Assembly: GCA_012813795.1 (NCBI GenBank)
Contig: GCA_012813795.1_4087.1
Origin: a phage
Length of the DNA stretch: 64,000 bases
Strand: one strand, 5' to 3'
The notes beneath the pieces are model-generated. The model was not told the DNA's origin, did not search any database, and saw only the letters and a list, made by a program, of their open reading frames with translations. A program made the position numbers and the translations under genes. This document shows, piece by piece, positions 23,401 to 29,888 of the stretch. The first letter of the stretch is position 1. Each line of letters starts with the position of its first letter.

Positions 23401-24288
23401 TTGCATGGAGAAAGTATTATGTCAATGAACCCGTTAGCAAAATACACAAAAATCGAAGAAATTAGTACTAAACTCGTCACTAACAACATTTTCCAGTACA
23501 AAGATGGTGTATTGGGGAGCAAAGGCATTAAATGTGGTGTCTGTGCTCGTAGTGCTCGTGACGAAATGATGCTCAATACACCTGATATGTTACTCAATGG
23601 TAGTGCAGTGTCATCTGTTATCGAAAACTGTGTACCAAACATTCTAAACGCAGAAGAGCTTTATGTCAATGACGTTGAGCAAATTCTTATTGCTATCAAG
23701 TTAGCATCCAAAGAAACCAGTTATGATATCAATGTCGTATGTCCATCCTGTTCAAAAGAAGGGCGTTTTGAACGTGACCTTTCTTATCTATTGGAAACGG
23801 CTGAATCTTTTACTGAAATTCCGAGTATTGATCTTATTAATGGTTTATCTCTCCAGTTTAGACCACTTACTTGGAAAGAATATTCAGAGTTTTCTCAACG
23901 TATGTTAGCTGAACAACAAAAAACTAAGTATCTTGAGAGTACTATTGATATTTCAGAAGATGATAAAATTAAAATGTTTTCTGAAGTATTTGAAAACATG
24001 GCACAACTAAACTTTGATATGATTGCTGGAGTTATTGATAAAGTAATTACTCCTGATGGTGATGAAGTATCAGATAAGAAATTCATAAGTGAATGGTTAG
24101 GTACTCAATCAAAAGAAGTGATCAAGCAAATCAGAGAGAAAATGGATGAAGTACTAGAAATTGGTGTATCACATACTATGGAAGTTGAATGTATTGAATG
24201 TCAGCATCAATGGGAACTTACTGGATTAAAGTATGACCCTACTCATTTTTTCGATCTCAGCTTCTCTTCTCAAACCCAGAAGAAATAA
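23401..24288 (+). CDS. zinc-finger protein (three CxxC pairs); possible C-terminal extension via -1 frameshift to 24466
   Basis: CGVC, CPSC, CIEC; T_TTT_TTC heptamer at 24246-24252; the -1 frame stays open for 63 codons beyond the 0-frame stop. Confidence 0.6.
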   Translation: MHGESIMSMNPLAKYTKIEEISTKLVTNNIFQYKDGVLGSKGIKCGVCARSARDEMMLNTPDMLLNGSAVSSVIENCVPNILNAEELYVNDVEQILIAIKLASKETSYDINVVCPSCSKEGRFERDLSYLLETAESFTEIPSIDLINGLSLQFRPLTWKEYSEFSQRMLAEQQKTKYLESTIDISEDDKIKMFSEVFENMAQLNFDMIAGVIDKVITPDGDEVSDKKFISEWLGTQSKEVIKQIREKMDEVLEIGVSHTMEVECIECQHQWELTGLKYDPTHFFDLSFSSQTQKK

Positions 24289-24478
24289 AAGAACTTCTGG
24301 ATGATATGGAGTTGAATAAATCAGATATTAAAAATGCCCTTATGGATGCTGCTGTTTATGTAGATAATGTCGATTATGCAACTCTACTTAATATGCCAGT
24401 AAATGACAGAGATATGCTTATTAAGGCATACAATAAGAAAGTAAAGAAGATGAACGAGAAGCACTAATACTCATAAGA

Positions 24479-24510
24479 AGCCAGCACATTGTTGCTGGTT
24501 TTTTTGTTTT
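24479..24510 (+). terminator. rho-independent terminator after the 23401 gene
   Basis: CCAGCA-cattgt-TGCTGG followed by a long T-run. Confidence 0.7.
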
Positions 24511-25361
24511 TGTTTTTTGGGTTTTTACTTACAAAGTAGATGAAAGAAATTATGATCTTAAAAGATTTATTCTTGAAGGAATTCATTTGATTTATATTGA
24601 ACTCATCTAACTCATTTCATTCGTTAGCTGAAGAATATTCGTTAACTACGTTAACTCATATTCATTTTAATATAATTATAAAGAACTTTAAATGATTTAA
24701 TACTTGACGGGATTTGTTGAGGATATTTCATCCCCCCGCAGGGGAATGAAGATAATAAAAAAGAGACAATTAAGTCTCTGTTTCTTGACGCTGATGGCAT
24801 CGGTATTATTGTATTGCGAATTTCTTAAAATTTAAACGTAATTATATTGTAAAAATATTAAGAACGAAAGCGGGTTGCTCTGTTTCTCTCTATCGCAGTC
24901 ATGTGCAACGGTCGTCAGTCTTAAACATCCTGACACTCACCTGAAAGTCTATACAATCAAACTTCAGGCTGTTTAATGAAATGAATCATCAAACTCCCTT
25001 AGCAAATCTGGTAAGGTGCGATCCTTATACATCTATCGAGGAACTCTCTGTATGCTTATCGGAGTTCTTTATTGAGCCGTGTCGCCGTGAGGGGTTCATA
25101 ATATGCCCACATCTAACGGGTTTCTTTTGCTCATCGCACTGTTGAACTGCTCATCTACCCTCTACATTTTCGAGTGGATTAGGTTCTAATTTATATGCAT
25201 TTCTGCATTCAACAGGATTGTCAGTACTACATAAAACATTATAGCACGCAATTTAAAAGTGTCTCAAAATATCTAATCTTTTTTATAAAAAAGTACTTAA
25301 AAATTTCTTAGGAATGTATTTCATAAATATTTCATAAACTAACTTAGATCTAAGGCACATT

Positions 25362-25853
25362 ATGAAACGAAGACTTAAAGATAGTAAGGAAGCTGCTACG
25401 TACAGAAATGAATTATTAAAAAAGCAAAAAGGTATTGATCCTATAATCAAAGAACCGATTAAGAAACCAGTACTCGACCACTATCACTTCGAAAACCAGC
25501 ATTGTAGAGAAGTTCTACAAAATGAGGTTAACGCATGGGAAGGTAAGGTGCAGAACTCTTTCAATCGATACTTGCGTCATTTAACTGATAAACCTCTTCA
25601 TGAAGTACTAAGAAATCTGGCAGATTATCTTGAAAAGAACAATAATATTCCACCAGAAGAGCAAGTGATTCATCACACGGCATTAACTGTGGATGTTAAT
25701 AAGTTTAAAAGGCTCCCAGCAACGCAGCAAAACGCGATTCTGGAAGGGTTAGGAGTTGTCCCTGGTAGCAACACTACTGCTCGTGTAAAACAGGCTAGGA
25801 AGCTTATTAAGGACGGCAAATTAAACATGTTAGATATAAAAAAAGGGAGCTAA
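25362..25853 (+). CDS. endonuclease VII (gp49)-like His-Me finger protein lacking the zinc-binding cysteines
   Basis: LDHYHFE...NEVNAWEGKVQNSFNRYL resembles T4 endo VII (LDHDHE...CNLCNAAEGQMKHKFNR). Confidence 0.45.
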   Translation: MKRRLKDSKEAATYRNELLKKQKGIDPIIKEPIKKPVLDHYHFENQHCREVLQNEVNAWEGKVQNSFNRYLRHLTDKPLHEVLRNLADYLEKNNNIPPEEQVIHHTALTVDVNKFKRLPATQQNAILEGLGVVPGSNTTARVKQARKLIKDGKLNMLDIKKGS

Positions 25854-25873
25854 GGCTCCCTTTATTCATTATA

Positions 25874-28021
25874 TTAGAAAATATCATCAAGAGTAGCATA
25901 TTCAACAGTACTGAAACCGTCTTCTTTAACAACTTTAAGGATTTTTTCTGTTTTAGATAGTAATTCTTCTCTGTGAGATATTGCATATACGTTTTTACCA
26001 CGTACAGCAGCCATATCCTGGAAGATTGACCATACTCTTAGAACACCACTTGAATCAAGACCCTGATCTATCATCTCATCTATGATAAGAATATTAATAC
26101 TTTGATATAATGATTCATAAGTATCGCGGAAAGCACATGATAATGCAATATTAACACGTGTTCGTTCCCCACGACTCAATTGTTTGTAGTCAAAGTACTG
26201 TCCACTCTTCTCAATCTCAACACTAAGGTCATTCAAGAAGACCACATTGTGTTCTGAACCACACATATCAATATAGTACTGCAATCTGGAGTTCAAATAT
26301 GAGATATTTTGTTCAATGATACGTTTACGAACATAACTATCCTTATTGAGCAATAGTTTAACTAAGAAATCTTGGTGATTAGCCAATTTTTCAAGGTTAT
26401 TGAAGTCAGTATAATCAATAGGAACCAACGAATCGGTTGTTAAAGTATTAATCTGACTAATAAACGTATTAGTTGTGTTCATTTCGCGTTCAAGTTGTTG
26501 AGTAAGTGAGTTAAATGTCATTTCTAACTCTTTAACTTCTGATTTATTCAACGCATCTGGAACTTCCTTTACTTCTAATGCATCAAGAGCCTCATAAGAA
26601 GACATTAGTTCATCACGGTAGATGTTAATTTGTTCTTCCTCACTCTTTTTAATAAGTTCTTGTAGCTTATGGTCATGCATTTGGGCTTCGGTAAGGGTAT
26701 TATAGAAAGTTACAGGTTTAGGGGGCATATCAAATATCTCAATTGCATTGATTTCATCTGATAGTGTTGCAATTTCCAACTCAACCTTACTTATATTTTC
26801 TCTGATTAGACGAATAGTATCATTAATCTTATCTTTTATACCATTACCATGCTCATTATGCTCCAACTCTGATAAACAAAGTGGACATTTACTATCCTCA
26901 ACTGATTTTAATTTCTCTTCTTCTGCTGTAAGAGATTTAATATGAGCATTCAACGAAAGATTTAGTGAATTTAGTTTCTGTGTTTTGAAATTCTTTTGCA
27001 ACTGATTATCTTTTAAGATAGATTCTAGTTGTTTCCACAGTTCCATTTCTTCATGGTTTTTTAATTCAGATTCAATATCAATAGTTTTTAATTTATCGAT
27101 ACTATGCTGAATAATATTTTTATTAGTGGCTAGTTCTCTATCGTACTGATCATATTTCACTGCAAGTTCTTGAACTCTACGTTCGAGTTGTAAACGTTTA
27201 GAGATGTGTAGAAGTGCTTCTTCTTTCTCTTCAGCAGCAGCATATAAATCAGAAAATACAAAAGTACTGTATTCTTCCAATTCACTTTTTAGTTTTTGCA
27301 CTCTATTAGCCTTATCAATTTCAAACTTATTAGCCTGTTCCTGTAAGGTTTCAATGCTGCGTTGAATGCGTTCATTACTTGCTGCAACTGTTTCAATTTT
27401 AAACTTCTCTTGGTCAGCTAAACGTTTTGACTCTTTGTTCATATCCTTTAACAGTTCAGCTTTCTCTGTTAATTGGGTAATACCTAATAGCTCTTCAATC
27501 ATATCACGTTGTTTCTGTGAAGAAAGAGCAAGGAAAGGTTCAACGTTAGCATTCAGTACTACAATGTGCTCAAAAAGTAATTGAGAGATTCCTAGAATTT
27601 CATTTAGATCTTCTTGTGTATCTTTCTTTTCACCTCTTGATTCATCGAGAACTTTATTGTCCTGACCAAGAGTGATGAAATTGAAATATGTGGGACTACG
27701 CCCACGCTCAACAAGGTATTGTATACCGTCTTTCTCGAACTCAACGGTAACTTCACAATTTTTAGCATTTGTTTTATTAACTAAGTTTGGAATTTTAATA
27801 TCGTTACCAATACTTTTTCCAAATAGTCCAAAAACAAGACCTTGAATAATTGCACTTTTACCTACACCGTTACGACGACCAGAACTATCACCACCTTCAA
27901 TGACAGCATCATTGTTTTGACCGAGTACTAAAGATATGTCAGCACCATTTAAATCAATAACTTGTGGTGCATTACCAAAGGAAAAGAAATTCCTCATTGT
28001 TATACGTGTAATGTTTAACAT
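25874..28021 (-). CDS. 46: recombination nuclease ATPase subunit (SbcC/Rad50-like, T4 gp46)
   Basis: N-terminal Walker A RRNGVGKS; long coiled-coil middle; adjacent to gp47. Confidence 0.85.
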   Translation of the reverse strand: MLNITRITMRNFFSFGNAPQVIDLNGADISLVLGQNNDAVIEGGDSSGRRNGVGKSAIIQGLVFGLFGKSIGNDIKIPNLVNKTNAKNCEVTVEFEKDGIQYLVERGRSPTYFNFITLGQDNKVLDESRGEKKDTQEDLNEILGISQLLFEHIVVLNANVEPFLALSSQKQRDMIEELLGITQLTEKAELLKDMNKESKRLADQEKFKIETVAASNERIQRSIETLQEQANKFEIDKANRVQKLKSELEEYSTFVFSDLYAAAEEKEEALLHISKRLQLERRVQELAVKYDQYDRELATNKNIIQHSIDKLKTIDIESELKNHEEMELWKQLESILKDNQLQKNFKTQKLNSLNLSLNAHIKSLTAEEEKLKSVEDSKCPLCLSELEHNEHGNGIKDKINDTIRLIRENISKVELEIATLSDEINAIEIFDMPPKPVTFYNTLTEAQMHDHKLQELIKKSEEEQINIYRDELMSSYEALDALEVKEVPDALNKSEVKELEMTFNSLTQQLEREMNTTNTFISQINTLTTDSLVPIDYTDFNNLEKLANHQDFLVKLLLNKDSYVRKRIIEQNISYLNSRLQYYIDMCGSEHNVVFLNDLSVEIEKSGQYFDYKQLSRGERTRVNIALSCAFRDTYESLYQSINILIIDEMIDQGLDSSGVLRVWSIFQDMAAVRGKNVYAISHREELLSKTEKILKVVKEDGFSTVEYATLDDIF

Positions 28022-28030
28022 CCGTGTCCC

Positions 28031-29062
28031 TTATAATGATCTATAGATTTGTATTAGTAGATTCTTGTCGAACATTGGAGAATCAATTTCCATGATTTGT
28101 TGTAAAACTATCTCATCAACTGATTCAGTACTTTCAAAGTGTTCACCTTCTTCCAAAAGTTCTTTGATACTTTGTTTACTTGTAACAACGTTAAACTCAC
28201 GAATATTATAAAGTTTAGTAAAAGTATCACGAATAAAACTAATCTCATCAGTTGTGATTGGAATATCAACCTGAACTTTCGAGATAGAGTTATCTTGTAA
28301 GTAATAACTTGGATCAGTTAGTAGCTCTGACAAAGTAAATGTTCTGTATTTCGGTGCAGCATCCCATGATTTGAATGTTGGTTCTGAACCGTGTTCAAGA
28401 ATCATAACACCTCTAGCATCATCCCATGTGTCTGAGAAGTTATGAGGGAAACAGTTACCAGTATAAATTACACGAGTTCCTTTAGATGTGAGTTTGGACT
28501 GTCGTTTATGGAAATGCCCACTAAAAACATACTCACAACCACCAAAAGAACCTTCAGTCTCTTTACCATGATCTGGCATTTCTACCATTTTGTTAAGCAA
28601 ATATCCAGGCAATTCAAGATGACCAAATACATATTTGCTTTGTAATTTAGGTAGCATTTTGTATTCATCTTCAATCATAAATGGGATGAAAGTACAATCA
28701 TCAATTGTTGTAATTTCATTAATGAACTCGATGTTTTCATAAACTTGTGCCATATTAATACTTGTAATATCGCGTTTGTTTTTATGATACATGTCATGGT
28801 TCCCAACTAAGAAGTAAACTTTATCAAAGTTGTCATTTAGTAATTGGAGAATTTGTAAACCATAGTTTAATGTTTGAATATTAATGTTGCTGCGGTTATG
28901 GAAGTAATCTCCCATAAACACACATACTTTAATACCTTTCTTTTTGGCTTCATCAATCATAAATTTAATGAAGTTCAAACAATCTTCGTTGTGCTGCTTA
29001 CTGTTATTCTTTAATCCTAAATGAATATCAGTGAATGTAATTGCTTTATCAAATAGTGCCAT
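28031..29062 (-). CDS. 47: recombination nuclease subunit (SbcD/Mre11-like, T4 gp47)
   Basis: phosphoesterase motifs DIHLG, GDYFH, GNHD; start refined to the ATG at 29062. Confidence 0.85.
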   Translation of the reverse strand: MALFDKAITFTDIHLGLKNNSKQHNEDCLNFIKFMIDEAKKKGIKVCVFMGDYFHNRSNINIQTLNYGLQILQLLNDNFDKVYFLVGNHDMYHKNKRDITSINMAQVYENIEFINEITTIDDCTFIPFMIEDEYKMLPKLQSKYVFGHLELPGYLLNKMVEMPDHGKETEGSFGGCEYVFSGHFHKRQSKLTSKGTRVIYTGNCFPHNFSDTWDDARGVMILEHGSEPTFKSWDAAPKYRTFTLSELLTDPSYYLQDNSISKVQVDIPITTDEISFIRDTFTKLYNIREFNVVTSKQSIKELLEEGEHFESTESVDEIVLQQIMEIDSPMFDKNLLIQIYRSL

Positions 29063-29888
29063 CGTCATTTTTCCTTTCAATCATATTCATTTCGATTTCA
29101 ATCTGTCTTGTATGTGATGGTGTAAAACCATGCATCTCAAGAAGGTCGTCGCGAATGTTACGTACATTCTTCTCACTGTTCAAAATAGAACGGAAGCTAT
29201 TGTTAACGAATGACGTATAGTATGAGAAAGGATTTAGTTGGACAGCAGGTTTATCTTTCTTATACAAGATACTCTCTTTGAAGAGAAGTGCATTTTTAAC
29301 TAATTGTATTCTAGCATCACCCATCATTTCATCCAAATACGTATAATTTCTGTAGTTAGATTTGTGAGAGATCTCTTCGGCTAGTTTAATGAACATTTTA
29401 CCGAGTTCATTTGTGATTTTACCATGTGTTAAGTAGAAATCGCCATCTTCCAAGTCGCCTTTCCAATGTGAACGAACAACTTCATACAGAATACCTTCAT
29501 TATCAACGATATAATGTTTAAATGGTTCAAAATTCACTCGTGTATCTGGTGGAATGTGCTCATCAGTGATAACTCTAATCACCACTTCATCCAGTGGTAC
29601 ATCATTTACGAATAGACCGTGCTCATCAGCATATTCCTTTGCTTTCTTAGCACTCATATTCTCTTTTTCGCGAACACTATCAAGCATTTCATTATTCAAA
29701 CGTTTGATTCGTGCTGCTTTTGCCTTTTCAAGTAATTCTTCTGTGATTTCAGACTCATGAAACACAATATAATCATACATACCATAACTTTTATCCAAAA
29801 GCCAGCAGTATGATATCTTACTTTTATGTATTTCACGTAATAAGTCTGCGTTATTCAGATACTTCTTACGCTTCGGCTTGTTTATCAT
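29049..29888 (-). CDS. 55: late-transcription sigma factor (gp55-like) with insertion
   Basis: YLNNADLLREI and NPFSYYTSFVNNSFRSIL resemble T4 gp55; 55-47-46 order as in T4; GGAGAG RBS. Confidence 0.5.
   Translation of the reverse strand: MINKPKRKKYLNNADLLREIHKSKISYCWLLDKSYGMYDYIVFHESEITEELLEKAKAARIKRLNNEMLDSVREKENMSAKKAKEYADEHGLFVNDVPLDEVVIRVITDEHIPPDTRVNFEPFKHYIVDNEGILYEVVRSHWKGDLEDGDFYLTHGKITNELGKMFIKLAEEISHKSNYRNYTYLDEMMGDARIQLVKNALLFKESILYKKDKPAVQLNPFSYYTSFVNNSFRSILNSEKNVRNIRDDLLEMHGFTPSHTRQIEIEMNMIERKNDDGTI

Follow-up and report, generated by a model that had tools for sequence, protein, structure and literature searches.

In T4-like replication, recombination-dependent synthesis yields branched concatemers, from which endonuclease VII (EndoVII, gp49) removes Holliday junctions and Y-branches, allowing packaging. 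Enzymes of this type act as domain-swapped homodimers, and their cleavage of four-way junctions, Y-branches and mismatches depends on Mg2+. In the T4 enzyme a zinc ion ties the loop after helix 1 (C23, C26) to the N-terminal end of the catalytic helix (C58, C61), and mutation of these cysteines was reportedly found by Giraud-Panis and colleagues in 1995 to destroy function. Among junction-resolving enzymes EndoVII is a textbook case, and its Cys4 zinc site counts as part of the signature of the family (PMC6083498, PMC5714182). Across 313 sequences bearing the EndoVII motif, the cysteine pairs CX2-4C and CX2C were highly conserved (PMC6083498), and a classification of His-Me finger nucleases places EndoVII among the zinc-knuckle members, many other His-Me families being without a knuckle (PMC5714182). 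The homing members of the EndoVII-motif group carry the motif at the C-terminus (PMC6083498). In such F-CphI-type enzymes it follows a separate DNA-binding part, and their distribution is sporadic and mobile.

Here we compare with these systems an EndoVII homologue found in a 64,000-nucleotide stretch of phage DNA (hereafter the window). Our literature searches found no description of a zinc-less EndoVII branch.

The gene, its neighbours and its kinship with T4 EndoVII

Positions 24000-29000 of the window are 99.2% identical to Escherichia phage A4 (ON286972.1, genus Asteriusvirus, 355.5 kb) and approximately 80% identical to some thirty further Asteriusvirus jumbo phages; judged by this nucleotide identity, the source phage is an Asteriusvirus jumbo phage. 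The EndoVII (T4 gp49) homologue (25362..25853, + strand, 163 amino acids) is identical as a protein to A4_591, annotated as 'DNA endonuclease VII'. Other records list the gene as 'recombination endonuclease VII', 'EndoVII packaging and recombination endonuclease' or 'hypothetical protein'. Its function for the phage is an ordinary one that has been annotated already. A Shine-Dalgarno-like TAAGG (25351..25355, +), read from the sequence, lies 6 nt ahead of the ATG and may guide translation. Further upstream, CATAAATA (25322..25329, +) is a candidate late promoter with one mismatch to the T4-type TATAAATA; at the aligned place phage Sharanji has an exact TATAAATA, and a gp55-like late sigma factor is encoded near the EndoVII gene.

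The gene sits among T4-like recombination genes. A 9-bp GC-rich hairpin (25842..25863), terminator-like on both strands, spans its stop codon and is shared with a convergent gp46/SbcC-like recombination nuclease subunit (715 amino acids, 25874..28021, - strand), followed by a gp47/SbcD-like subunit (349 amino acids, 28031..29080, -). Phages A4, Sharanji and GAP32 have the same order of baseplate-hub-like gene, small ORF, gap of about 0.8 kb, EndoVII, convergent gp46-gp47 and gp55-like late sigma factor. CBB differs solely by one inserted gene, and the arrangement is common to Asteriusvirus and Mimasvirus. The A4 genome additionally encodes RecA/UvsX, UvsY, a single-stranded DNA-binding protein (gp32 homologue), helicases and a large terminase; the CBB genome paper likewise describes this gene as a T4 EndoVII homologue within a T4-like recombination set (PMC5259590). 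Outside the window, A4 carries seven tandem paralogues annotated as 'putative DNA condensation protein' (ON286972.1 345902-354619).

The gene is the only one of its kind in the genome. Hidden Markov models of the zinc-less family and of the canonical family scored the ORF at 25362-25853 with E-values of 7.8e-87 and 5.7e-24, respectively, and found no second EndoVII-like ORF among the six-frame ORFs of at least 40 amino acids in the window and the rest of A4, the next E-values being at least 0.86. Neither RuvC, RusA, T7 endonuclease I nor any other resolvase is annotated in the A4 genome, and its three small annotated HNH endonucleases have no match to the EndoVII profiles.

Profile comparison puts the likeness to EndoVII far beyond chance. 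PHROG 423 ('endonuclease VII') matches residues 2-150 with an E-value of 1.5e-34, and a profile built from 22 homologues with 57-90% identity to the query (alignment A1) retrieves the T4 EndoVII chains from the PDB with an E-value of 1.1e-5. Compared by hhalign with an alignment of T4 EndoVII and nine canonical Cys4 homologues (A3), A1 gives a probability of 99.94 and an E-value of 9.6e-37 over 140 aligned columns. These matches are highly significant, so the EndoVII assignment of the first-pass annotation, which named the absence of any such profile match as the result that would speak against it, holds. A single-sequence phmmer search of the PDB missed T4 EndoVII and returned only a spurious sulfotransferase match; thus, a family profile is needed to reach the T4 enzyme. 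Pfam PF02945 scores the protein at 18.0 bits (E 0.0027), under the gathering cut-off of 23.6 bits, a shortfall consistent with the missing cysteines, and few homologues carry a precomputed PF02945 match.

The overall architecture is also that of the T4 enzyme (gp49; PDB 1en7, 1e7d, 2qnc; PF02945). Length (163 versus 157 amino acids) and domain order agree, and the hhalign alignment is whole-length, pairing residues 7-155 with T4 residues 4-154, with the catalytic motif N-terminal and the C-terminal domain included. Unlike T4 EndoVII, however, the protein lacks a four-residue insertion ('NGPK') between two beta strands, and sequence identity is only about 22-24%. An AF2 model has a mean pLDDT of 82.8 (89-91 over residues 11-40), and T4 EndoVII, the best structural match to this prediction, supplies its top three Foldseek hits at probability 1.0; as AlphaFold ignores metals, this confident fold is no proof of zinc independence. 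The predicted helices agree with a resolvase-type EndoVII architecture, including the C-terminal helical domain (approximately residues 79-155, 25596..25826, +), which aligns to the C-terminal region of the T4 enzyme. This domain contains E81 and H104, at the conserved positions of T4 E86 and H105, as well as Y89, and its final helices resemble a SAP-like DNA-binding motif. Set against the 'DHHRN' family survey (F-CphI/EndoVII/Hpy99I, PMC6083498), the N-terminal motif and whole-length alignment correspond to the 'resolvase clade', and by homology we assign the protein to the EndoVII (DHHRN) family with 'resolvase' architecture. What sets it apart as a variant is the missing zinc signature of that family together with a Pfam score under the cut-off.

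The ORF-free gap and its RNA element

The gap upstream of the EndoVII gene (24468-25361) has a G+C content above that of its flanks. GAP32 and CBB keep its length and, to a striking degree, its sequence, although the gene next to it is saturated at synonymous sites. A tRNA scan of the gap found none, and an Rfam scan gave no match at E<=10. A strong intrinsic terminator (24475-24504, +; 12-bp stem and T-run) stands right after the small ORF at 24306-24467. Phages GAP32 and CBB conserve the stem of this terminator, which marks where the hub-gene transcription unit ends and the ORF-free gap begins.

Covariation among 18 copies points to a structured RNA element of about 470 nt at approximately 24760-25232. 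The minus-strand fold of these copies (24750-25240) comprises 81 consensus pairs, and compensatory changes occur in 50 of these. The paired fraction of cells is 97.4%, dropping to 35-46% with slid partners, and the covariation score is 0.47 against at most 0.08. The minus strand is favoured by its lower consensus energy (-57.7 versus -49.7 kcal/mol for the plus strand), by fewer A.C mismatches (10 versus 28) and by the positions of a conserved extended -10 promoter (25267..25238, -) and an intrinsic terminator (24779..24762, -), the latter with covarying stems and a T-run on the minus strand only. The plus-strand model covaries as well, and for this reason we regard the minus strand as the probable orientation with some reserve.

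The element is a repeated one. A profile of 15 orthologous copies found three more in A4, at approximately 65.3, 125.9 and 321.2 kb, the four lying in the same absolute orientation (paralogues at L088 15168-15537, L089 25740-26146 and L092 41989-42347). These paralogues share the core and flanking motifs, not the surrounding genes. By blastn the element occurs in 72 phage records, each of them from a Rak2-like jumbo phage (enterobacterial or Xanthomonas). Most of these genomes carry 4-5 copies, those of the Rak2/K64-1 group 2, and the element is almost never annotated. Literature searches found no description of this repeated element. The related phage PA5oct has four ncRNAs defined by RNA-seq (PMC7318152); a link to these is unconfirmed, the blastn matches being confined to the enterobacterial and Xanthomonas Rak2-like phages.

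At 24700-24830 of the window, the RNA core is flanked by two conserved motifs that contain TTGACG, TTGACGGGATTTGTTGAGG and TTGACGCTGATGGCATCGG...ATTGTATTGCGAATTTC, and by a C6/G4-rich hairpin, TTCATCCCCCCGCAGGGGAATGAA (24731-24754). Neither the motifs nor the hairpin vary between paralogues or across genera; on the plus strand they may serve as promoter or regulatory sites specific to the phage or, alternatively, they may belong to the 3' part of the minus-strand RNA. The A4 genome encodes several sigma-70-family factors, and one copy of the element directly follows one of these genes, A4_181.

As the element recurs at other sites and is missing ahead of the EndoVII gene in Rak2 (L016), we conclude that it is an independent, multi-copy RNA gene, divergent from the EndoVII gene. 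A pairing of the kind formed by IscB with HEARO/omega RNA was also considered and rejected: the protein has 163 amino acids against about 400 or more, there is no RuvC domain and no Rfam match at E<=10, and the RNA beside the gene, which probably lies on the other strand, has further copies at sites distant from EndoVII.

These observations bear on one of three readings offered by the first-pass annotation, in which the protein is a homing endonuclease tied to the adjacent ORF-free region. Homing endonucleases with the EndoVII motif do exist in phages (PMC6083498), and the gene adjoins an unusual 0.9-kb gap, so a free-standing enzyme of the F-CphI-like type ('DHHRN endonuclease clade') merits consideration. 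However, the motif here lies at the N-terminus, T4 EndoVII can be aligned through the C-terminal domain, synteny is fixed across genera, and the gene is single-copy. Additionally, Rak2 keeps an EndoVII gene with no RNA upstream, and the element in the gap is found at three other loci that have no EndoVII gene, its transcription probably running on the strand opposite to the gene. We consider a homing function exceedingly unlikely.

Catalytic centre and zinc-ligand positions

The window protein reads ...PVLDHYHFENQHCREVLQNEVNAWEGKV..., and T4 EndoVII, whose sequence was verified residue by residue against PDB 1en7/1e7d, reads ...HLDHDHELNGPKAGKVRGLLCNLCNAAEGQM...; LDHYH here corresponds to LDHDH in T4, and VLQNEVNAWEG to LLCNLCNAAEG. 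The catalytic DHxH is D39-H40-Y41-H42 (25476..25487, +; T4 D40, H41 and H43), in which Y41 varies and the other residues are invariant. R49 (25506..25508, +; T4 R54), likewise invariant, supplies the active-site arginine of 'DHHRN'. On the catalytic helix, Q53-N-E-V56-N57-A-W-E60-G61 (25518..25544, +) keeps N57, E60 and G61, the equivalents of T4 N62, E65 and G66. The five residues for which the DHHRN family is named are therefore all present (D39, H40, H42, R49 and N57 by profile alignment) and invariant in the family. In the 22-sequence alignment the invariant positions are D26, P27, I28, D39, H40, H42, R49, N57, E60, G61 and H104.

All four zinc ligands, by contrast, are replaced. In the profile alignments T4 C23, C26, C58 and C61 fall on D26, I29, Q53 and V56, so that both the CX2-4C before and the CX2C after DHxH, the zinc signature of the surveyed family (PMC6083498), are absent from this lineage. 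The segment D26-P27-I28-I29 (25437..25448, +) occupies the place of the first T4 zinc knuckle, C23-L-I-C26, and its D26, P27 and I28 show no variation within the close family; MAFFT had placed T4 C23 and C26 on the L and Q of 'ELLKKQ', a placement overruled in favour of D26 and I29 by a larger alignment and by hhalign. With these T4 equivalences, the first-pass description of the motifs proves correct: the protein keeps the DHxH and N...E(G) positions (D39, H40, H42, N57, E60 and G61) and has lost both CxxC pairs, with QNEVN where CNLCN is expected.

The loss is shared by close relatives. A search of 5.8 billion proteins yielded 120 close homologues, 119 of which matched the motif pattern and could be scored. 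All 119 have aspartate at the C23 column and none has the full ligand set, D/I/Q/V being the commonest pattern across the four columns. Homologues in rV5-like phages (Vequintavirinae), such as Klebsiella phage KNP2 gp112 (about 43% identity over residues 5-117), share the DP[IL] knuckle and likewise have an incomplete four-Cys site (D/L/S/V or C/L/S/V). They differ in genomic setting, being flanked by exonuclease and DNA polymerase genes and lacking both gap and RNA upstream, and in a diverged C-terminal domain.

The same holds at greater distance. When 1.84 billion cluster representatives (50% identity) were searched exhaustively with a profile, 558 proteins were retrieved at E<=1e-3, and counts were taken on the best 148 of these that cover all columns. 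Cysteine is absent from all four ligand columns in 75 of the 148 and present at one in a further 57 (0-1 in 132), and a complete Cys/His set occurs in only 13, with D-H-H-N essentially invariant. Across 150 wider-family representatives D/H/H/R/N are near-invariant. By these counts the loss is a lineage trait rather than decay, and the zinc-ligand-free form is typical of a large, previously unremarked EndoVII branch. At the column of T4 E65 (E60 here), the 148 representatives have E in 65, L in 57 and I in 16. Approximately 55% carry Leu, Ile, Met or Val there, with D-H-H-R-N invariant, and half of the wider family thus has a changed active-site periphery.

An alternative to the loss of the metal is its relocation, in which a structural metal would still be bound through moved or reduced ligands such as C48, H47, H73, H104/H105 or D26. 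Within the close family, conservation of C48 reaches at least 90%, and H73, H104 and H105 do not vary; many wider-family members (16 representatives) combine one cysteine at the C23 column with histidine at the C58 column. However, H104 is equally conserved in zinc-containing members and is thus no replacement ligand, and no conserved four-ligand Cys/His constellation is present. In the wider zinc-less family the C48 column is V in 66, C in 39 and I in 22, the H73 column holds W, H, Y or K, and 94 of 137 have P at the H105 column, which makes a general relocated site unlikely. Overall we judge a moved zinc site improbable, with room for a relocated metal site specific to the close clade.

Function and significance of the zinc-less form

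The EndoVII gene is under strong purifying selection. Its dN/dS is 0.063 against a 90%-identical orthologue (L007), and comparison with other genera shows saturation at synonymous sites (pS 0.73-0.92) with the protein still 62-76% identical. This bears on the suggestion, also made in the first-pass annotation, of an inactivated resolvase, that is, a pseudo-enzyme kept for DNA binding or a structural role. All four zinc ligands, considered necessary in T4, are gone, and the Pfam score is under threshold. Yet every catalytic residue is invariant under this low dN/dS, the gene is the sole EndoVII-like gene amid a T4-like recombination set, and the substitution pattern is held across hundreds of 50%-identity clusters. 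Inactivation therefore seems very unlikely to us. Taken together, purifying selection, the sole copy, the recombination gene set and fixed synteny argue against a decaying gene as they do against a homing endonuclease.

The remaining first-pass option, a zinc-independent His-Me finger nuclease, is the one that stands. We consider it likely that the protein is an active, zinc-independent debranching resolvase of the EndoVII type, orthologous to T4 gp49; we infer its nuclease activity, its substrate, its dimer architecture and the absence of a bound metal. The likenesses to T4 EndoVII extend from the catalytic D, H, H, R, N and E and the E86/H105 equivalents to the surrounding recombination and packaging genes; the four zinc cysteines are what differs. 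In having a beta-beta-alpha-metal core with no Cys4 site, the protein resembles the knuckle-less His-Me finger nucleases (PMC5714182), which belong to other families.

We propose that this small His-Me finger (beta-beta-alpha-metal) nuclease would cut branched DNA in the phage, in the same role as the T4 enzyme. The catalytic chemistry would be unchanged, with D39 and N57 holding the catalytic Mg2+ and H40, H42, R49 and E60 in the active site. If the T4 zinc cysteines are indeed essential, as is reported, function free of zinc needs compensating changes, and those that we infer centre on the former knuckle. The zinc tie may be replaced by polar and hydrophobic contact, the D26-P27-I28 knuckle packing against Q53/V56; D26 would hydrogen-bond to Q53 or to the N-terminus of the helix, and I29/V56 would form the hydrophobic part. 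So arranged, the enzyme would fold and work with no zinc.

The zinc-less form also has a practical consequence, as it leads to under-detection by Pfam and thereby to pipelines that alternate between 'endonuclease VII' and 'hypothetical protein' for one and the same gene. The structural point is modestly interesting and easily tested. A bolder proposal, doubtful at present, is that the zinc-less form is a distinct and numerically dominant EndoVII branch, with an Asp-Pro-hydrophobic knuckle in place of Cys4 and E65 changed to Leu or Ile in about half of its members, and that the loss was adaptive. If this were true, debranching and packaging would be freed from the zinc supply of the infected cell, and the loss would not be neutral drift of a structural site. 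With the whole catalytic centre and architecture of EndoVII but no zinc ligands, this large natural lineage offers a ready-made experiment on what can stand in for a zinc knuckle.
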